Assembly: GCA_910585375.1 (NCBI GenBank) | Contig: CAJUCZ010000002.1 | Coordinates: forward strand, 43,285-107,284 | Length of the DNA: 64,000 nt | Direction: 5' to 3' | DNA from: an uncultured Alphaproteobacteria bacterium | GTDB taxonomy: Bacteria > Pseudomonadota > Alphaproteobacteria > RF32 > CAG-239 | Shown here: in pieces, positions 24,452 to 58,596 of the stretch | Position numbering within the stretch: the stretch's first letter is position 1 | Layout: the number at the start of each line of letters is the position of its first letter | Program-made: the position numbers and the translations under genes | Notes under the pieces: generated by a model | Database searches by the model: none | Told to the model about the DNA's origin: nothing | Seen by the model: only the letters and a program-made list of their open reading frames with translations

Positions 24452-24589
24452 TTTCAAACAAATCTGACCGCGGGGCAATTTTTGCCCCGCATTTTTTGTA
24501 CCAGACTTCCATAGGAATAATCTTAAAAAAATGCTGTTTGTGAAGCAAAAACTGATGTACAAAAAATAAGAAGAAAAGAAACAAGCATG

Positions 24590-24950
24590 ACTGGTCTTAA
24601 AAAATTAAAACTTGATATATGAGGCAGATAATAAGAAAAGAAAATTTTGGCGACAGAAGTGTATAGAGACATACATGACTTACCAAAATTTCCTTTTCTG
24701 TATTAGGTGCCCATAGTTTTATAAAACCGCGGAGAATGAGTCGAATAATAAGATTTTAGGGTGGAGAAAGCGGAGTGTACAAAGTAGTACATGAGCATTT
24801 CTCCAACCCGCTAAATCTGTATTAGTCGGCCATTATGCGCGTTTTTTAAAACTTGATAAAGGCCGATGCTATTTGTGGAGCAAAATTCGACGTGTACAAA
24901 AAATAGTACACGAGAATTTTGAAACGCAAATTTGATCGGCCTTTTGCAAG
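24590..24950. repeat. Cluster A of nested palindromic repeat units (3 units)
   Basis: Units are bounded by (g)ataataaga ... ctgtattag, with a gYgtac-N6-9-gtacRYga core and self-complementary arms. Inter-unit motif tataaaaccgcggagaatgag; terminal ttatgcgcgtttttt. Confidence 0.7.
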
Positions 24951-24952
24951 TT

Positions 24953-25690
24953 TTATATCATGGCCATTCCGCCATTAATATTAATAGTCTGTCCCGTAAT
25001 ATATTGCGCTTCATCAGACGCAAGGAATGCAACAACGTTTGCAATATCCTGAGCTTCACCAAGCTTGCCTTCCGGAATTTTGGCCAAAAGAGCGGCTTTA
25101 ACATCATCTGGCAAAACATCTGTCATCGGCGTGCGGATAAAGCCCGGAGCAATTGAGTTTACGGTAATGCCGCGCGAACCGACTTCCTGAGCCAGACATT
25201 TGTTCATGGCAATCATACCGGCCTTGGAAGCGGAATAGTTGGCCTGACCGGCATTTCCGGTAACGCCGACAACCGAGGCAATACCGATAATACGACCGAA
25301 ACGGCGCTTCATCATGCCGCGAACGGCAGCTTTTGCCAATTTGAAACCGGCTGAAAGGTTAACATCCAAAACCAGTTGCCAGTCTTCATCACTCATTCTG
25401 ATAAAGAGATTGTCGCGTGTCAAACCGGCATTGTTTACCAAAATATCAATACGGCCAAGTTTTTCCTCAACTTTTTCAACCAAAGATTTTACATCTTCAG
25501 GATTTGTCAGGTTGGCGGTAAAAACCTCAACATTGGAACCCAACTCTTCCTTCAGCTTAAGCATCGGCTCTTCACGCATATCGGTCAAAGCCAGAGTTGC
25601 CCCCTGAGCATGCAGCGTACGGGCGATTTTATCACCCAGTCCGCCGGCGGCACCGGTAATCAGGGCAACTTTTCCATCTAATCTAAACAT
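24953..25690 (-). CDS. fabG: 3-oxoacyl-[ACP] reductase
   Basis: SDR with GxxxGxG; fabD-fabG order. Confidence 0.9.
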   Translation of the reverse strand: MFRLDGKVALITGAAGGLGDKIARTLHAQGATLALTDMREEPMLKLKEELGSNVEVFTANLTNPEDVKSLVEKVEEKLGRIDILVNNAGLTRDNLFIRMSDEDWQLVLDVNLSAGFKLAKAAVRGMMKRRFGRIIGIASVVGVTGNAGQANYSASKAGMIAMNKCLAQEVGSRGITVNSIAPGFIRTPMTDVLPDDVKAALLAKIPEGKLGEAQDIANVVAFLASDEAQYITGQTININGGMAMI

Positions 25691-29173: not shown

Positions 29174-29695
29174 ATGACCAGAGAATTCAAGGTTTCTAAA
29201 TCCCGTTGTTACATTATCAGTTTTATAACATTTTCAGCGGTTCTTTCTTGTGGCATCCTTCTTTTTCTTTACGCGGGAAATCCTAAAAAAAACATAGATC
29301 TCATTTTCTGTGGTATTATTTGTTTATTTTCCTCATATCAGTGCTTAAAATTTTTACAGTTCGGAAATCAAAAAAAATCTATCTTAAGCATAACCCCGCA
29401 AGGAATTATAGATAACCTTTGCAAATATGGCTTTATCCACTATTCCGAAATTATAAATATCGAACTGATAACCTACAAAAATAATAAAATGATAGAAATT
29501 AATGTTTATGACCTCAGTAATATTTTACAAAGACTATCAAAGTTCCAACAATTTTACAAAAAAATAGACAGGCCATTTTTCAGAAACAATATTCGAATCC
29601 CTACCTTTATTTTTCAAGATGATCCCAAGGAGATTGTCAATACTCTCCGCAATGCCTTAAACGAATATCAGCACCAAACAACAAATAATAACTAA
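29174..29695 (+). CDS. Hypothetical small membrane protein, low GC
   Basis: Two N-terminal TM helices and an AT-rich composition; followed by repeat cluster B. Confidence 0.4.
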   Translation: MTREFKVSKSRCYIISFITFSAVLSCGILLFLYAGNPKKNIDLIFCGIICLFSSYQCLKFLQFGNQKKSILSITPQGIIDNLCKYGFIHYSEIINIELITYKNNKMIEINVYDLSNILQRLSKFQQFYKKIDRPFFRNNIRIPTFIFQDDPKEIVNTLRNALNEYQHQTTNNN

Positions 29696-29699
29696 CTCT

Positions 29700-29978
29700 G
29701 TGTCTCTGGAAAGTCTTGGCAAGCGCAGAAAGCGTAAGCAACCGCAGCAAGCCTGGATGCCTAAGTCAGATAATAAGAAAAAAGAATTTTAGCGACAGAA
29801 GTGTACGTAGTGGTACATGACTTAGCTAAAATTCTTTTTTCTGTATTAGGGTTTTATAAAAACGCGGAGAAAGAGGCTGGTAATAAGAAATAAAAAAGGA
29901 AGTACCGCAGCGTACATAGTAGTACGTGAGGAAACTTCCTTTTGCTATTTCTGTATTAATAGCCCTTTATACGCGTTT
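29700..29978. repeat. Cluster B of nested palindromic repeat units (2 units) plus the cttggcaagc...gcaaccgcagc sub-repeat
   Basis: Unit B1 has a perfect 18-bp stem agaaaaaagaattttagc/gctaaaattcttttttct around a gtgtacgtagtggtacatgac core. Unit B2 is flanked by the inverted tataaaaacgcgg / cgcgttttttata. Confidence 0.7.
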
Positions 29979-29979
29979 T

Positions 29980-32391
29980 TTATATTTTCATCTTGTAGAA
30001 GGACCGATATACAAATATCAACCCCAACAATAAGAAGAAAATACCCAGCCCCAGAGAAACACATCTCGGAGCGGCAACAGCCATTTCTACTGCCAGCAAT
30101 CCGAACAAAGTCGTAAACTTGATAATCGGATTGAGAGCAACGGAAGACGTATCTTTGAACGGATCACCGACCGTATCGCCGACAACAGTAGCGTCATGCA
30201 ACGGCGTACCTTTCTCATTCAAATCAACCTCAACCACTTTCTTGGCATTATCCCATGCGCCGCCGGCATTCGCCATAAACAGCGCTTGGAACAAACCAAA
30301 CACGGCAATTGAAATCAGATAGCTTGCAAACAGGTTTGCATCAAAGCAGGCAAACGCAATCGTAAAAGAAAAGATTACGATAAAGATGTTAAACATGCCC
30401 TTTTGCGCATAGATTGTGCAAATTTTTACAACTTTCTGAGAATCTTTCTTAGACGCAGCTTTTTTACCGTCAAGTTTGATGTGACTCTTAATAAAGTCAA
30501 CCGCTCGGTAAGCACCGGTCGAAACCGCCTGCATGGAAGCGCCCGAGAACCAGTAAATCACCGCACCGCCGAGAATCAGGCCGAACAGAACTTGCGGATC
30601 CAGCAGATTAAGCTTCAGGTTCAACAGCAAAATGATTGAGAAAATCATCGTTGTAGCTCCGATAACCGCCGTACCGATAAGAACCGGCTTGGCCGTTGCC
30701 TTAAAGGTGTTTCCGGCACTGTCATTAGCTTCCAGCAAATGCTTTCCTTGCTCAAAATTCGGTTTAAATCCGTATTTTTTCTCAATCTCTTTGTCCACGT
30801 TTTTAACGCTTTCAATCTGAGACAGCTCAAAAACGGACTGTGCATTGTCGGTAACCGGACCATAGCTGTCTACGGCAATAGTCACCGGCCCCATGCCAAG
30901 CATCCCGAATGCCACCAGACCGAAAGCAAAAACCGACGGATAAACCATAAAGTCGCCCAAACCGGACTGCGCGGTAAAGAAAGCGATAACCATCAAACCG
31001 ACCATGACCATTCCCTGCCAGAAAGCGGAAAAGTTACCGGCAACGATACCGGAAATAATGTTCAGAGAAGCACCGGCTTCACGGCTGGATTTGACGATTT
31101 CCTGAACATGCTGTGACTTGGACGATGTAAAGATTTTGGTAAACTCCGGAATCAGAGCCGCCGCCAAAGTACCGCAGCTGATAATCAGAGAAAGACGCCA
31201 CCACAAATCCGGACTGATATCGCCGATCATCACATAAGAAACACCAAAAGTGACGGCAATCGAAATGATTGAAGTAAACCAGATCAGGCTTGTCAGCGGT
31301 TTTTCAAAATCAAAGAATTCTTTTTTGCCGTAAAGGGCAGAAGAAACTTTATTGTTAAACCAGTAAGAAATCAGCGATGTAATAATCATCAGGATACGCA
31401 TTGCAAAAATCCAGACAATCAGACGAGCCTGAAAATCAATACCGTTCGGCATCAACGCCAAATCGCCGTTCGGGGCATACATCATGCCGGCACCGAGAAC
31501 GATAAAGCTGATAAGAGCCACGCCGGTCACGCCGTAAGTTTCAAAACCATCGGCAGTGGGTCCGACGGAGTCGCCGGCATTATCACCGGTACAGTCGGCA
31601 ATCACTCCCGGATTGCGAACGTCATCCTCACCGATTTTGAAAATAATCTTCATCAGGTCGGCCCCAATATCGGCAATCTTTGTAAAAATGCCGCCGCAAA
31701 TACGCAAAGCTGCCGCACCCAGAGATTCGCCGATGGCAAATCCGATAAAGCAGGCGCCGGCGCTTTCTTTCGGCACAAACAAAAGAATGGCAATCATCAT
31801 AATCAGCTCAACGCAAATCAGCAAAACGCCGATAGACATGCCGGAACGCAACGGCAGGCTCATAACCTTATAAGCCTTGGCTTCCAAAGAAGAAAAAGCC
31901 GTTCGGGCATTGGCATAGTTGTTAATGCGCATACCGAACCAAGCCACGGAATAAGAACCGAGAATTCCCAAAACTGACCAGGAAAGAATAGTCAGAACTT
32001 TGGGCATCGGCGTTGCGTTAAGATAATAGAAATAGTAGAAAATACAGACCGCAATAAACACTTCCAGAACCAACAGCAGTTTAGCCTGTTGTTTCATATA
32101 AGTTTTGCAGGTTGCATAAATCAGTTCCGAAACCTTCAGCATGGCATCATGAGCCGGCATTTTTTTGATCTTAAGAAACTCATACAAACCAAAAAGCATA
32201 CCCAAAACACAGATACTCATGCCATACAGCAAAATCTGCGAACCCAGAACAGAATAACCGAAGATGTTGTATTCCACATCCAAAGACGGAATTTTGAGGT
32301 CAATTTCAGAAGCATATGCCCCCTGAACAACCCCGACCAGCGCCAGCATCAGCGCACCGGCAAAGGTCTTAAAATTTTTCAAACCAAACAT
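29980..32391 (-). CDS. hppA: Membrane-bound proton-translocating pyrophosphatase
   Basis: 803 aa, multi-TM, with H+-PPase signatures GDTVGDPFKDT and DNAGG. Confidence 0.9.
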   Translation of the reverse strand: MFGLKNFKTFAGALMLALVGVVQGAYASEIDLKIPSLDVEYNIFGYSVLGSQILLYGMSICVLGMLFGLYEFLKIKKMPAHDAMLKVSELIYATCKTYMKQQAKLLLVLEVFIAVCIFYYFYYLNATPMPKVLTILSWSVLGILGSYSVAWFGMRINNYANARTAFSSLEAKAYKVMSLPLRSGMSIGVLLICVELIMMIAILLFVPKESAGACFIGFAIGESLGAAALRICGGIFTKIADIGADLMKIIFKIGEDDVRNPGVIADCTGDNAGDSVGPTADGFETYGVTGVALISFIVLGAGMMYAPNGDLALMPNGIDFQARLIVWIFAMRILMIITSLISYWFNNKVSSALYGKKEFFDFEKPLTSLIWFTSIISIAVTFGVSYVMIGDISPDLWWRLSLIISCGTLAAALIPEFTKIFTSSKSQHVQEIVKSSREAGASLNIISGIVAGNFSAFWQGMVMVGLMVIAFFTAQSGLGDFMVYPSVFAFGLVAFGMLGMGPVTIAVDSYGPVTDNAQSVFELSQIESVKNVDKEIEKKYGFKPNFEQGKHLLEANDSAGNTFKATAKPVLIGTAVIGATTMIFSIILLLNLKLNLLDPQVLFGLILGGAVIYWFSGASMQAVSTGAYRAVDFIKSHIKLDGKKAASKKDSQKVVKICTIYAQKGMFNIFIVIFSFTIAFACFDANLFASYLISIAVFGLFQALFMANAGGAWDNAKKVVEVDLNEKGTPLHDATVVGDTVGDPFKDTSSVALNPIIKFTTLFGLLAVEMAVAAPRCVSLGLGIFFLLLGLIFVYRSFYKMKI

Positions 32392-34935: not shown

Positions 34936-35115
34936 TTATTTGCAGTTACATTTGTCACTGCATTTATGCGTCTCGTTACATTGACAATCGTCTCCGCAGG
35001 TACAATGCTCATTGCATCCGCAATTCTCGCCGCATTGGTGCGTTTCGTCACATTTGCAGTTCTCTCCGCAGGTACAATTCGGATTCTTGCATTTAGGATT
35101 GTTGCAGTTTCTCAT
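34936..35115 (-). CDS. Metallothionein-like Cys-rich small protein (59 aa, 16 Cys), not in ORF track
   Basis: Translates to MRNCNNPKCKNPNCTCGENCKCDETHQCGENCGCNEHCTCGDDCQCNETHKCSDKCNCK; RBS aaggagaaagta before the ATG; 11 nt upstream of the CsoR-like gene on the same strand. Confidence 0.65.
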   Translation of the reverse strand: MRNCNNPKCKNPNCTCGENCKCDETHQCGENCGCNEHCTCGDDCQCNETHKCSDKCNCK

Positions 35116-40844: not shown

Positions 40845-41699
40845 ATGAAAAACTTTATTATTACTCAAAAAGACAGCCTTTATATTTTATGGCTGTGGGA
40901 CAGTATAAAAGAAGATTTTGAAAAACTGGCCGAAGGCCCTTGGGCACAATGCCGCGCCCTTTCAAAAGAAGCACTGATTGGAAATGCTGCCGACGACTTC
41001 CGTTTTTTCGGAATAAGCCGCGATAAGCTGTTCCAATCGCCGGAACATTGCTCGGAAGTTGACAACCGCAACGACTGTTTTCTCTATAAAAAAGAAAAAA
41101 ACTGGTACCTGCGCACAGACAAATTCTCTGACACCGACCGACTTCTGGGAACGGCAGATTACTATGACACTCCGTTTGGAAAAAGATTTTTTTATGTTCA
41201 ATTTCTTCCTAAAAAAGAATATATATTGAGCTTTGTCTGTAAAGGAACATCAGAAGTCTTTCAAAAAAAATACGACAAACCGTATTTTACCGGCAAAGAA
41301 TATGTTGTTGCCGACAGAAACGACGGATATTCCGATATCTACAGCTATGGACTTCCGTCAACAAAAGAACTGATAGAAATACCGTACTGCAACAAAACAA
41401 GAATTTACGGCTACGTAAAAAAAGCGGAGGCCTATAAGCTTTTGGCCGAAGAACAATATATAAGCACGTTCCAAAATGCCTATCTGGTCTTCAAGGAACA
41501 CCAAACAGCCGGATTGTTCGCCATAGATCAGGAAGAAACCAAACTGGTTGCCGAAGGAAAATACAAAACGCACCAATGGAAAAATATTTTTTATTTGAAT
41601 GGCAAAGGCTATCCGTATACTTACAACGTTGTTGAATGGGACAAGGTTTTCTTGACACCGGCCGGCAAAATCAAAAATTTCTTCAAAAAACTGTTCTAA
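40845..41699 (+). CDS. Hypothetical protein (284 aa)
   Basis: ORF with terminator; its last codons FKKLF-stop are duplicated at 42423-42443. Confidence 0.45.
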   Translation: MKNFIITQKDSLYILWLWDSIKEDFEKLAEGPWAQCRALSKEALIGNAADDFRFFGISRDKLFQSPEHCSEVDNRNDCFLYKKEKNWYLRTDKFSDTDRLLGTADYYDTPFGKRFFYVQFLPKKEYILSFVCKGTSEVFQKKYDKPYFTGKEYVVADRNDGYSDIYSYGLPSTKELIEIPYCNKTRIYGYVKKAEAYKLLAEEQYISTFQNAYLVFKEHQTAGLFAIDQEETKLVAEGKYKTHQWKNIFYLNGKGYPYTYNVVEWDKVFLTPAGKIKNFFKKLF

Positions 41700-41783
41700 A
41701 AAAGCAAAAAGCCGGAAAGCCAAAAGCTTCCGGCTCTTTTTGTTACAATTTTAAATAATCCTCAAAAGACACATATTCCCGAC
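41681..41783. repeat. Direct repeat copy 1 (~100 bp: gene-end + bidirectional terminator + remnant 3' end of a 42484..43206-like gene)
   Basis: Matches 42423-42524. The minus strand of copy 1 still reads REYVSFEDYLKL-stop. Confidence 0.65.
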
Positions 41784-42422: not shown

Positions 42423-42524
42423 CTTCAAAAAACTGTTTTAAAAAGCAAAGAGCCGGAAAGTCAAAAGCTTCCGGCTCTCTCTGTTACAAACTCAAATAAT
42501 CCTCAAAAGACACATATTCCCGAC
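42423..42524. repeat. Direct repeat copy 2 (includes remnant PFKKLF-stop plus terminator plus the genuine 3' end of 42484..43206)
   Basis: About 90% identical to 41681-41783. Confidence 0.65.
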
Positions 42525-44412: not shown

Positions 44413-44440
44413 AGACAACACCCAACATAAATAAATGCCA

Positions 44441-44485
44441 CCTGCAAGAGGCGGCATTTATTTATGGCGTACCCGGACGGGGATA
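44441..44485. repeat. Copy of terminator hairpin + tRNA-Arg 3'-end fragment (aaataaatgccRcctgcaagaggcggcatttattta-tggcgtacccgg...)
   Basis: Near-identical to 44820-44878 at the genuine tRNA 3' end. Confidence 0.6.
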
Positions 44486-44676
44486 GGGACAAAAAACTGA
44501 CCAACGTCAGATTTTTGGCACGTATCCCTAGCTTTACTTGTTGAGCAAGGAAAGCGGCAGCAACCGCAGCGAAACTAAGAAAGCTTGGAGCCCTCCCCGT
44601 GAAAACAAGCTCCTGCGATGTTTGAACGGAAGGGTACATCACAAAAAATCCCCAGCAATGCAGGGGATTTTGAAGT

Positions 44677-44696
44677 GGCGTACCAGGAGGGATTAC
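44677..44696. repeat. Second displaced tRNA-Arg 3'-end fragment (tggcgtaccaggagggatt)
   Basis: 19 of 20 identical to the tRNA-Arg 3' end at 44856-44875. Confidence 0.55.
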
Positions 44697-44855
44697 TCTT
44701 CGCTTCGCTCCAAGTTGCACTGGCGCTCGTTCGCTTTGCTCACCGGCGTTCTCCCGCCCGCCTCTCTCTGGTAGTCAAACCCACTTACTCGTGGGTTCAA
44801 ATCCACCGCTCCACAACATAAATAAATGCCGCCTGCAAGAGGCGGCATTTATTTA

Positions 44856-44932
44856 TGGCGTACCCGGAGGGATTCGAACCCACGACCCTCGGCGTCGGAG
44901 GCCGATACTCTATCCAACTGAGCTACGGGTAC
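44856..44932 (-). tRNA. tRNA-Arg (anticodon CCG)
   Basis: Manual fold: acceptor GTACCCG/CGGGTAC, D-arm GCTC/GAGT, anticodon stem TCGGC/GCCGA with loop CTCCGAC, T-loop TTCGAAT, encoded CCA. One U-U mismatch in the T-stem. Confidence 0.8.
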
Positions 44933-47033: not shown

Positions 47034-47068
47034 CGGATATGTACCTGTGTAACCAAGGTACATATTTT
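47034..47068. terminator. Terminator atatgtacct-gtgtaacca-aggtacatat plus T7
   Basis: Perfect 10-bp stem followed by a T-run after dnaB. Confidence 0.7.
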
Positions 47069-47094
47069 TTTATTAACTTTAAATTAAATAAATA

Positions 47095-47123
47095 TTGACA
47101 TTTAATGAAAGGTGGGGTATAAT
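47095..47123 (+). promoter_or_regulatory. Perfect consensus sigma70 promoter TTGACA-17 nt-TATAAT upstream of pilin paralog 1
   Basis: TTGACA at 47095-47100, 17-nt spacer, TATAAT at 47118-47123, AAGGAG RBS at 47137-47142. Confidence 0.7.
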
Positions 47124-47146
47124 TTATGTCATAAACAAGGAGAAAA

Positions 47147-47530
47147 ATGATGAACTTCCTCAGAAAAAACATTTGGACAATCTGCCTGATTCTGGCCTTT
47201 GTCCTCATTTCAGGATCAGCTATGGCGGCAACGGGCAGTCAAAGCAGCCTTATGGGTATTGCTAAACAAAAAGCCTTCACTACTTTCAACAATGTCAAAA
47301 ACATCATCTTTATCGTTGGCGGTTTCGGTCTGGTTTTGCTGGCCTTCAACGCCATCTTCGGCAAACTCAAATGGACGGCTTTTGCCTCGCTGGCCGTTGG
47401 TTTGGCAATTTTAGCCGCCGCCGGTGCTATCGTCCGTTACGCAACCGGTGATACAAACTTAAATGCCACAGGTCAGGGAGCTGACAGTTTTGGCGATACT
47501 TTCCAGCAATCTGCCGCAGACACTTACTAA
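47147..47530 (+). CDS. TrbC/VirB2-like type IV secretion pilin paralog 1
   Basis: Cleavable signal peptide (AMA), two hydrophobic segments separated by GK(L)KW, and a C-terminal IVRY. First 31 codons are identical to paralog 2. Confidence 0.6.
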   Translation: MMNFLRKNIWTICLILAFVLISGSAMAATGSQSSLMGIAKQKAFTTFNNVKNIIFIVGGFGLVLLAFNAIFGKLKWTAFASLAVGLAILAAAGAIVRYATGDTNLNATGQGADSFGDTFQQSAADTY

Positions 47531-47555
47531 AAGCATAAGGCGTTGCCTGAACAAC

Positions 47556-47644
47556 GCCTTATTCCTCGGAGAGAAACCCTTGCAAGTAAACCCAATTTAC
47601 GAGATTAATTTTCTCACCGGATTTCTCTCCGCCTCTTTTTATTA
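47556..47644 (+). other. Conserved 3' structured element copy 1 (10-bp stem cggagagaaa...tttctctccg enclosing ~45 nt), candidate ncRNA/3'UTR element
   Basis: About 97% identical to 51047-51135; follows a terminator hairpin aaggcgttg-cctgaa-caacgcctt. Confidence 0.45.
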
Positions 47645-50512: not shown

Positions 50513-50594
50513 AATCCGCACCGGAAATTATAATTTCTAAAAAGAGTCTGAATTTTTCAGGCTCTTTTTTTATTAACTTTAAATTAAATAAATA

Positions 50595-50623
50595 TTGATA
50601 TTTATTGAAAGGTGGGATATAAT
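50595..50623 (+). promoter_or_regulatory. Near-consensus sigma70 promoter TTGATA-17 nt-TATAAT upstream of pilin paralog 2
   Basis: Duplicate of the 47095-47123 module with 3 substitutions. Confidence 0.65.
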
Positions 50624-50646
50624 TTATGTCATAAACAAGGAGAAAA

Positions 50647-51024
50647 ATGATGAACTTCCTCAGAAAAAACATTTGGACAATCTGCCTGATTCTGGCCTTT
50701 GTCCTCATTTCAGGATCAGCTATGGCTACCAATACCGGCGGCGGGCAAAACAGTTTGATGGATATTGCCAAAACCAAAGCCGGTACAACTTTTCAGAACG
50801 TAAAAAGCATTGTGTTTATCGTCGGGGGTTTTGGCTTGGTCTTGCTGGCCTTCGGTGCCATCTTCGGCAAAATCAAATGGTCGGCTTTTGCCTCGCTGGC
50901 CGTTGGTTTGGCGATTTTGGCTGCGGCCGGTTCTATCGTCAAATACGCAACCGGCGACAGTAAAGTAAGCGGACAAGAGAGCACTTATTTTGTAGATACA
51001 TTCCAAAATTCCGCAACAGACTAA
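50647..51024 (+). CDS. TrbC/VirB2-like type IV secretion pilin paralog 2
   Basis: Same architecture as paralog 1: identical signal peptide and a diverged mature region. Confidence 0.6.
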   Translation: MMNFLRKNIWTICLILAFVLISGSAMATNTGGGQNSLMDIAKTKAGTTFQNVKSIVFIVGGFGLVLLAFGAIFGKIKWSAFASLAVGLAILAAAGSIVKYATGDSKVSGQESTYFVDTFQNSATD

Positions 51025-51046
51025 AACAAAGGCGTTGCCTGAACAA

Positions 51047-51135
51047 CGCCTTACTCCTTGGAGAGAAACCCTTGCAAGTAAACCCAATTTACGAGATTAA
51101 TTTTCTCACCGGATTTCTCTCCGCCTCTTTTTATC
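51047..51135 (+). other. Conserved 3' structured element copy 2
   Basis: See 47556-47644. Confidence 0.45.
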
Positions 51136-58127: not shown

Positions 58128-58596
58128 TTTTCAGGCCGCTGTAAAAACCGCGATAGAAGCGCTAAGCAAAAACAATCGCAGCTCCGGTTGTTTTTGTCTG
58201 CAAACTCTTTGGAACATCTTGGCAAGCAAGGAAAGCGTTAGCAACCGCAGCGAGCTTAGATGCCTAAGGTACAAAATAGTACATGAGCATTTCTCCATCC
58301 CGCTAAATCTGTATTAGTCGGCTATTATATGCGGTGTTTACAAAAATTACGGAGAATGAGGCTAGTAATAAGAAAAAACCTTTAAGGCGACAGGAGTGTA
58401 CGTGGTGGTACATGACTTAGCCTTAAAAATTTTCCATATTAAGCGCCCCTTCAGGCCGCTGTAAAAAACGCGATAGACGCGACGGATAATAAGAAAAAGA
58501 AAATCCGGCGACAGGCGCGTACATAAACGTACGTAACTTAGCCGGATTTTCTTTTTCTGTATTAGGCGTCCGTATTGCGCGTTTTTTACGCGACAA
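58128..58596. repeat. Cluster C of nested palindromic repeat units (3 units) inserted between leuS stop and lptE start
   Basis: Unit C3 has a perfect 17-bp stem agaaaaagaaaatccgg/ccggattttctttttct around a gcgtacataaacgtacgta core. Also holds duplicated ttcaggccgctgtaaaaaRcgcgataga modules and the cttggcaagc...gcaaccgcagc sub-repeat. Confidence 0.7.

Follow-up and report, generated by a model that had tools for sequence, protein, structure and literature searches.

Introduction

The tRNA-linked repeats of Escherichia coli, the closest described counterpart of the repeats considered here, have been known since 1978 and have so far, to our knowledge, no agreed function. Several other families of small repeats and elements resemble parts of the system described below. 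IS200/IS605 elements transpose as single strands, in a manner coupled to replication; they have hairpin ends, cause no target duplication, keep a constant short left junction, and show a strong bias of orientation relative to replication. The RIMEs of Rhizobium, the ERIC sequences of enterobacteria, the BOX elements of pneumococci, and the MIRUs of mycobacteria are modular intergenic blocks with palindromes of approximately 100–150 bp, and the mycobacterial MIRUs touch neighboring stop codons. We know of no tRNA-linked module in any of these four intergenic repeats.

The E. coli tRNA-linked repeats comprise 22 units at ten loci, one to several at each, and every unit has 18–19 nt in common with the 3′ terminus of the tRNA or rRNA that precedes it (PMC8144298). 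Three of them are small RNAs that arise by terminator read-through, and some units lie between two terminators (PMC8144298). A second point of comparison is provided by the REPIN/RAYT repeats, which are intergenic hairpins, vertically inherited and conserved between related species (PMC3116915, PMC3337134).

The window analyzed here is a 64-kb stretch of DNA (positions 1–64000) from an uncultured gut alphaproteobacterium; exact protein matching assigns it to contig CARAPH010000002.1 of the metagenome-assembled genome GCA_948940615.1. It harbors three copies of a stem-loop (SL) module, one in a unit that follows a tRNA-Arg gene and two in arrays of long hairpin units. The finding is a variant of tRNA-linked repeats together with REP-like mosaic repeats, and not a categorically new system. 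The reading that we prefer, and hold with about even confidence, is that the SL family is a mosaic repeat of tRNA-linked origin that spread to the ends of core genes by replication-coupled copying.

Comparison with described systems

Window positions 44465–44813 and the compared loci L019, L025, and L068 are arranged exactly as are the tRNA-linked repeats of E. coli (rtT/RtT RNA, RF00391, with the rRNA-operon members RrA/B/F). In the window, two units, a and b, lie directly downstream of tRNA-Arg and on the same strand; the copies at 29703 and 58159 follow protein-coding genes instead. However, there is no homology to the E. coli repeats in sequence or structure: the RtT model (RF00391) reaches 16.2 bits (E = 2.4) against a gathering score of 45, and this match falls on unit b, where it reflects only the tRNA-like end. 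The host also differs, being a gut alphaproteobacterium and not an enterobacterium, and the stretch identical to the tRNA is 13 nt long in unit a (18 of 19 nt in unit b). Furthermore, the SL module is here no longer confined to tRNA genes, having become part of dispersed repeats.

The hairpin units of the window share with REPINs and BIMEs their long imperfect intergenic hairpins, compensating changes, clusters of variable number, and vertical inheritance with conservation among related species (PMC3116915, PMC3337134), and each forms one long hairpin, as two inverted REPs do. Unlike REPINs, however, the units contain no GTAG-type REP motif, no RAYT was found within the window, and the units stand in a fixed orientation to the neighboring gene and to GC skew, starting on a stop codon. 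Hairpin ends, the lack of target duplication, a constant left junction, and an orientation bias recall the palindrome-associated elements of the IS200/IS605 group, but no TnpA or TnpB was found, and the constant TAAAA has a mirror copy at the opposite end, which makes it part of the element and not of the target. Terminal inverted repeats and presence/absence variation at orthologous sites are likewise features of MITEs, from which the units differ in having no target-site duplication. Finally, palindromic blocks that occur in varying order between genes are as characteristic of RIME, ERIC, BOX, and MIRU repeats as of the present family, but these bear no sequence relationship to it.

Three homologous copies of the SL module

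A preliminary description of the window had proposed that a segment of about 50 bp at one repeat locus (locus B) recurs at another (locus C) and, in degenerate form, near tRNA-Arg. Both recurrences were borne out, with 29703–29765 corresponding to 58206–58268 and a more distant copy at 44527–44600, although the bounds required correction: the true left edge lies about 12 nt further left than described, at 29703 and 58206. The features at loci B and C that involve this segment are as follows.

29703–29765, + strand: truncated SL module ("F1"), right 63 bp only; core 29728–29748, matched by pattern and profile
58159–58268, + strand: complete SL module, consisting of an A-run/hairpin/T-run (58168–58195) and then the stem-loop (58206–58268), core 58231–58251
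58130–58158, + strand: outer-arm module ttcaggccgctgTAAAAACCGCGatagaa flanking the SL module; second copy at 58449–58480
58269–58317, + strand: half hairpin unit that abuts the SL module precisely at the apical GTAC; same junction type in L196, L202, and L203

Self-alignment of the window supports the homology of the copies. The repeat finder paired 29703–29789 with 58206–58292 (77% identity over 87 nt) and placed 29715, 44537, and 58218 in one family; by our own count, the copies at loci B and C are approximately 86% identical over the core 51 nt. The core pattern GAAAGCGNNAGCAACCGCAGC matches 29728–29748, 44550–44570, and 58231–58251, all on the + strand, against a chance expectation of 0.03. 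An nhmmer profile built from 38 distinct copies recovers the same three copies (E = 8e-21, 3e-15, and 1e-14) and no fourth copy in the window up to E = 10.

The segment at locus C is the right half of the 110-bp module 58159–58268, of which locus B retains the last 63 bp only. At locus B, the motif directly 5′ of the core has drifted (GCAG in place of AAGG), and the same remnant is further decayed at the orthologous sites of other species; this copy is probably a truncated, decaying relic. The preliminary description had further seen in the segment the link that unites all repeat loci into one composite system. The three homologous copies, the membership of the hairpin units in the same family, and the repetitive, mobile behavior of the whole support much of this proposal. 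The sub-repeat does not by itself join all loci, however: locus A (24611–24955) contains hairpin units and no copy of it.

Structure and distribution of the SL module

In its complete form, the SL module consists of an A-run/hairpin/T-run followed by a stem with compensating changes that carries the invariant loop (G/A)AGC(A/G)AGGAAAGCGNNAGCAACCGCAGCGA. Read on the + strand, the A-run/hairpin/T-run always precedes the SL, and it looks like a two-way terminator. The loop, of about 30 nt, is unchanged across some 20 gut alphaproteobacterial metagenome-assembled genomes (MAGs), and 21 columns are invariant among the alphaproteobacterial SL copies. The flanks differ between roughly ten subfamilies, yet they remain mutually complementary. 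Matching flanks pair at a mean of −14.3 kcal/mol, compared with −7.6 kcal/mol for flanks swapped between 10 subfamilies, and none of 20,000 permutations equaled the matching set. The three window copies of the SL, taken alone, fold no better than shuffled sequence (z = 0.5, −0.6, and −0.2), and the evidence for structure is therefore comparative and not thermodynamic.

Existing RNA models do not cover these elements. In a search of the window with Rfam 15, only tRNA passed its gathering score and the SL was uncovered even at E values up to 10; the best Rfam 15 match to the hairpin units reached 25.5 bits against a gathering score of 100. A scan for the core pattern, with one genome per species, returned 61 genome stretches, of which 42 (45 copies) belong to gut or rumen MAGs labeled Alphaproteobacteria, proteobacterium, or Azospirillum; the richest MAGs have 4–8 exact-core copies each. 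The remaining 19 stretches come from unrelated taxa, mostly from coding-looking DNA and without the flanking motif, and were treated as chance matches. The SL module thus belongs to a modular non-coding repeat family that is restricted to a clade of uncultured gut Alphaproteobacteria.

Several other identities were considered for the sub-repeat and rejected. One frame of its minus strand is free of stops, but the stems vary in concert without conservation of sequence, and other copies contain stop codons, neither of which fits a coding sequence. The idea of a guide-RNA scaffold or an IS terminus beside a multi-copy gene was discarded because the apparent gene is another palindromic module without an ORF. 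A phage origin was set aside as well: both viral matches to the core fall within coding DNA and lack the flanking motif, and in viral contigs the hairpin pattern yielded nothing but chance matches.

An invariant loop on stems that differ between subfamilies is the pattern of a recognized sequence, and it is possible, although we consider it clearly less probable than the spread of blocks as DNA, that the SL is above all a functional RNA. The tRNA-linked units would then be small RNAs produced by terminator read-through and trimmed at the tRNA-like 3′ end, as are E. coli RrA/B/F; the loop would bind a protein or a target RNA, and the dispersed copies would be 3′-UTR versions. Against such a role, wobble pairs favor neither strand clearly, in the SL or in the hairpin units.

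Units linked to tRNA genes

The copy near tRNA-Arg had been taken in the preliminary description for part of a degenerate scar. Window positions 44465–44813 are instead a tRNA-linked repeat array that follows tRNA-Arg:

44465–44644, − strand: tRNA-linked unit of type a, with SL at 44527–44600 (core 44550–44570) and A-run/hairpin/T-run at 44497–44510; ends ...TCCGGGTACGCCA, the last 13 nt of tRNA-Arg
44676–44813, − strand: tRNA-linked unit of type b, without SL; ends AATCCCTCCTGGTACGCCA, with 18 of the last 19 nt of tRNA-Arg
44856–44932, − strand: tRNA-Arg(CCG), the gene to which units a and b are linked (ARAGORN, Rfam)
about 44428–44464, 44644–44672, and 44819–44855: terminator hairpins separating the units

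Read along the minus strand, the order is tRNA-Arg(CCG) (44932–44856), terminator, unit b (44813–44676), terminator, unit a (44644–44465), terminator. Unit a agrees with the 3′ end of tRNA-Arg at 13 of 13 nt and then at 16 of 17. The copy lies in a conserved unit that is found in orthologous position beside tRNA-Arg in L025, L046, and L060, and the same unit adjoins tRNA-Ser(CGA) in a fourth species (L038). A tmRNA or another tRNA-like gene at 44.4–44.9 kb was also considered and rejected: ARAGORN reports tRNA-Arg only, Rfam nothing, and there is no plausible tag frame.

The association extends well beyond this locus. Outside the species group of the window, the SL is nearly always found in the unit that directly adjoins a tRNA gene and that ends in the 3′ end of that very tRNA. 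Such SL units occur beside tRNA-Lys, Val, Ser, Arg (including ACG), and Leu, some of them in tandem. In L019, tRNA-Lys is followed by two tandem units of 319 bp with a 19-nt match to the 3′ end of tRNA-Lys; in L068, tRNA-Ser(GCT) is followed by two units of 173 bp with a 15-nt match to tRNA-Ser; and in L025 the array alternates, as tRNA-a-b-a. The SL family therefore originates in, or at least shares a block with, tRNA-linked repeats, and the tRNA-linked unit looks like the original setting of the family. The orientation of the SL relative to the adjacent tRNA is, however, reversed in L016, L019, and L021, which counts against the preferred reading and also against a function of the module as RNA.

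Other features of these units point toward RNA. Five of them, four beside tRNA-Arg and one beside tRNA-Ser, adopt a common four-way junction fold in which the 5′ end pairs with the tRNA-like 3′ end to form the terminal helix. In L038, where the 3′ end of the unit has switched to the sequence of tRNA-Ser(CGA), the 5′ end has changed accordingly, and the terminal helix is thereby kept through changes on both sides. The position of units between two terminator hairpins, moreover, is the layout of the E. coli small RNAs (PMC8144298). That a second, unrelated family of tRNA-linked repeats occurs in a remote lineage of uncultured bacteria, and that its loop has stayed fixed from genus to genus, suggests selection for the arrangement as such; the family also gives a basis for the comparative study of such repeats.

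Direct repeats of tRNA 3′ ends, at several different tRNA genes, are also the classic signature of integration, and the tRNA-adjacent copies could in principle be leftover attachment-site ends of integrative elements, with the SL a conserved sequence near attP and the dispersed copies rearranged fragments. We regard this as improbable. No integrase lies near any copy examined, and no real matches were found among 2.9 million viral contigs. The boundaries of the units are identical in the orthologous tRNA-Arg units, and changes at the tRNA end go together with changes at the 5′ end of the unit, a dependence not expected from integration. The regular alternation of a and b, with a terminator for each unit, likewise resembles the arrays of E. 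coli tRNA-linked repeats and not nested scars.

A separate observation concerns a tRNA gene that is itself interrupted. In L016 (2728–2950), a tRNA-Pro(TGG) is split in the variable region by an insertion of 145 nt that carries an SL module; the two halves fit together, and the gene is not called by ARAGORN. Possible explanations are a pseudogene, a target of insertion, and an unusual intervening sequence.

Hairpin units anchored on stop codons

The dispersed SL copies lie in arrays of a second type of element. The preliminary description had recognized two hairpin units at locus B, and these are real (29771–29848 and 29881–29958; RNA-fold z = −6.4 and −7.2). The units of the three arrays are:

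29771–29848, + strand: hairpin unit B1, palindromic, with TAATAAGA...TCTGTATTA core
29881–29982, + strand: hairpin unit B2 with outer arm CGCGTTTTTTA; its final TTA (29980–29982) is the TAA stop of the minus-strand H+-pyrophosphatase gene (hppA)
58366–58445, + strand: hairpin unit C1, right end degenerate
58487–58588, + strand: hairpin unit C2 with outer arm; 58586–58588 is the TAA stop of minus-strand leuS
24629–24824, + strand: hairpin units A1 (24629–24705) and A2 (24746–24824) of locus A; no SL module
24847–24955, + strand: short palindromic unit A3, TAAAACTTG...CAAGTTTTA; 24953–24955 is the TAA stop of minus-strand fabG

The units are near-perfect hairpins of 80–130 nt and fall into several multi-copy subfamilies with different stems. 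Across 24 distinct copies, 20 of the 33 base pairs show compensating changes, and 95.6% of cells are paired, compared with 78% in shuffles and 40–53% when the partner column is slid. What is conserved in sequence is confined to TAATAAGA/TCTGTATTA, GCGACAGG, and a GTAC...GTAC apex. Viewed on the strand of the neighboring gene, a unit is a palindrome of approximately 130 bp with the ends (G)TAAAAnnCG...CGnnTTTTA(C), the leading TAA being the stop codon of the gene; its terminal inverted repeats are TAAAAAACGCG...CGCGTTTTTTA and co-varying variants.

All three arrays in the window are anchored in this way, on the stops of fabG (24953–24955), hppA (29980–29982), and leuS (58586–58588), and in each the first unit has the stop codon of the core gene within its terminal inverted repeat. 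On the strand of that gene (minus in the window), the array then continues with one to four hairpin units of about 130 bp, an optional SL, and a hairpin with a T-run. The same anchoring is seen elsewhere: a converging ORF ends 19–25 nt from TCTGTATTA at 22 of 29 metagenome loci, and the corresponding distance at genome loci is 21–27 nt, or 125–131 nt where an extra short unit intervenes. Among L207–L299, the far end of the palindrome mirrors the stop codon; in L294, where this codon is TGA, that end is altered accordingly (TGA/TCA).

The SL and the hairpin units are separable. A metagenome scan recovered 39 further loci with true units, none of which has an SL, so that the units are independent of it. 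The version of the module without the tRNA end (F1), which is scattered in the species group of the window, has a right end, ...GATGCCTAAG, that is joined to a hairpin unit in 17 copies and to a different palindromic module in 9. Two observations on the joints of these mosaics may be added. In the window (58268/58269) and in L196, L202, and L203, the CCTAAG of the SL meets a half hairpin unit at its apical GTAY, with different unit types beyond; the recurrence of this junction suggests that breakage is favored at the tip of the hairpin. Several loci of related MAGs in the range L031–L070 contain further hairpin modules in the same mosaics, among them CCCCCTCTTTGCTAAGAGGGGG, GGATTGCCGGATCAAGTCCGGCAATGAC, and one palindrome, approximately 150 nt long, that starts with CCCTTTAACGAGTACTTCTTAG.

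The units start at the stop codon, and on both strands the closing CGCG, or a variant of it, runs into TTTTTTA; judging from sequence, they have, in place, the form of very long terminators. A simple terminator scanner, which is unable to score stems of this length, reports only the small A-run hairpin at 44497–44510 among the repeat blocks.

Conserved structure with variable sequence, one bulged G, and a uniform orientation with a start at the stop codon of the preceding gene are also properties of many integron attC sites. The units might accordingly be read as a cluster of attC sites without its integrase, and the sub-repeat as part of a cassette boundary, but we consider this very unlikely indeed. 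The core sites RYYYAAC (R″) and GTTRRRY (R′) are absent, the ends being TAATAAGA/TCTGTATTA and TAAAA/TTTTA; the window contains no intI; and the units follow one another without cassette ORFs, flanked by fabG, hppA, leuS, and lptE, or stand singly after dispersed core genes.

Orientation relative to genes and GC skew

The gene to the right of an SL (F1) copy converges on the element at 22 of 24 loci, and this consistent orientation relative to the upstream gene is a point in favor of a functional RNA. Orientation is also tied to strand composition. The + form of the element lies on the C-rich strand at 22 of 25 SL (F1) loci and at 30 of 31 unit loci, counts whose significance is somewhat overstated, as all orientation counts here are, since related MAGs are not independent samples. 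Where convergent genes flank a locus, the direction of the genes cannot decide the orientation of the element; at all such loci (11 with SL, 8 with units), the + form is again on the C-rich strand, a bias that a function in RNA does not predict. In the window itself (1–64000), GC skew of the + strand is negative along nearly the whole length, and the gene content of the two strands is roughly equal. Any account of the spread of such repeats has to accommodate two regularities, the start on a stop codon and the link between orientation and GC skew.

Turnover between strains and species

The number of hairpin units at locus B is two, three, three, or four depending on the species, the window having two. 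In L067, a third unit has been inserted between the A-run and the first base of the stem. No target-site duplication accompanies these differences, in that no direct repeat flanks the units and none surrounds the extra unit of L067. L194 and L198 have three and four units, respectively, and have lost the SL core by deletion, and in L196 a degenerate SL is joined to a half unit. The repeats at this locus are old and decaying. Three strains whose LptE proteins are identical differ in the modules present at locus C, including one or two SL modules, and L205, whose LptE is 68% identical, has an empty leuS–lptE spacer of 134 bp with a plain terminator. The repeat family gains and loses blocks rapidly. 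With the SL at locus B truncated in the window and its core deleted in two other species, dispersed copies are not kept everywhere, which speaks against a role of the SL chiefly as RNA.

Origin and spread of the family

According to the reading that we prefer, a derivative of the tRNA-linked unit without the tRNA end would have become one block of a dispersed mosaic. The blocks may then have passed as DNA copies from one gene end to another, through a single-strand mechanism coupled to replication; the candidates are a REPIN/RAYT- or IS200/IS605-like enzyme supplied in trans and template switching from one terminator hairpin to another. At their new sites, the blocks would serve at most as the terminator and 3′-end hairpin of the transcript. 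Copying of this kind is suggested by hairpins that are conserved in structure and not in sequence, by the lack of target duplication, by the GC-skew bias, by insertion beside existing copies, and by persistence across species. REPIN/RAYT systems are known to have such properties (PMC3116915, PMC3337134). IS200/IS605 elements have them as well.

Several observations weigh against such spread. The window contains no transposase, integrase, or HUH enzyme, and a tblastn search of 1.35 Mb of compared loci with an approximate IS200 TnpA query, a search of low power, gave no match. The stop codon is part of the palindrome and not a flanking target, which a simple insertion model fails to explain. With no enzyme found and the stop codon inside the palindrome, template switching is an alternative that is inseparable here from transposition. 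Conservation of the loop across species, furthermore, argues for a sequence-specific function, such as the binding of RNA or protein, rather than for purely selfish spread. An SL that functions above all as RNA is, on account of this conserved loop, the strongest rival to spread as DNA, and the two are compatible.

A more far-reaching proposal, which we think unlikely, is that the SL is an undescribed structured motif read by a conserved host factor and common to tRNA-linked RNAs and mRNA 3′ ends, and that the palindromic units are copied onto leading-strand stop codons without a dedicated transposase, for example, by template switching. If this were true, the repeats would constitute a self-propagating "3′-end cassette" system, of which the tRNA-Pro of L016 would be a further insertion target.

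Gene neighborhoods of the repeat loci

The preliminary description had associated the repeat clusters with acquired, AT-rich cassettes. The gene next to locus B (29174–29695) is indeed AT-rich, with 30.5% GC compared with 44.9% for the window, and encodes a protein of 173 aa without a Pfam domain. Its orthologs, however, of 45–75% identity, occupy the same ftsK–x–hppA synteny in other species, and the gene is thus a long-resident, syntenic, clade-specific one. The anchors of the arrays, moreover, are the stops of minus-strand fabG, hppA, and leuS, and the hypothetical genes of the plus strand lie on the opposite side. Upstream of locus A, the gene for a 299-aa product has a terminator of its own (24470–24490), and locus C lies between leuS and lptE. 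Altogether, the genes around the repeat loci are housekeeping genes: rimP–nusA–infB, ftsH, addAB, fabD–fabG, ftsK, the H+-pyrophosphatase gene, dnaB, rnpA–yidC, and leuS–lptE–holA. For annotation, this means that SL and hairpin blocks are not signs of horizontally acquired cassettes.

The window also contains repeats of other kinds. A duplication of approximately 580 bp (47065–47642 and 50565–51134), with the copies 3.5 kb apart and 79–98% identical, includes a small TrbC-like gene in each copy. A terminator-like hairpin, GCCGGAAAGCCAAAAGCTTCCGGC, forms part of a 98-nt repeat (41686–41783 and 42427–42524; 87% identity). At 34940–35083, in the spacer that separates a csoR-like repressor gene from a pirin gene, two 72-nt copies with 72% identity lie in tandem.
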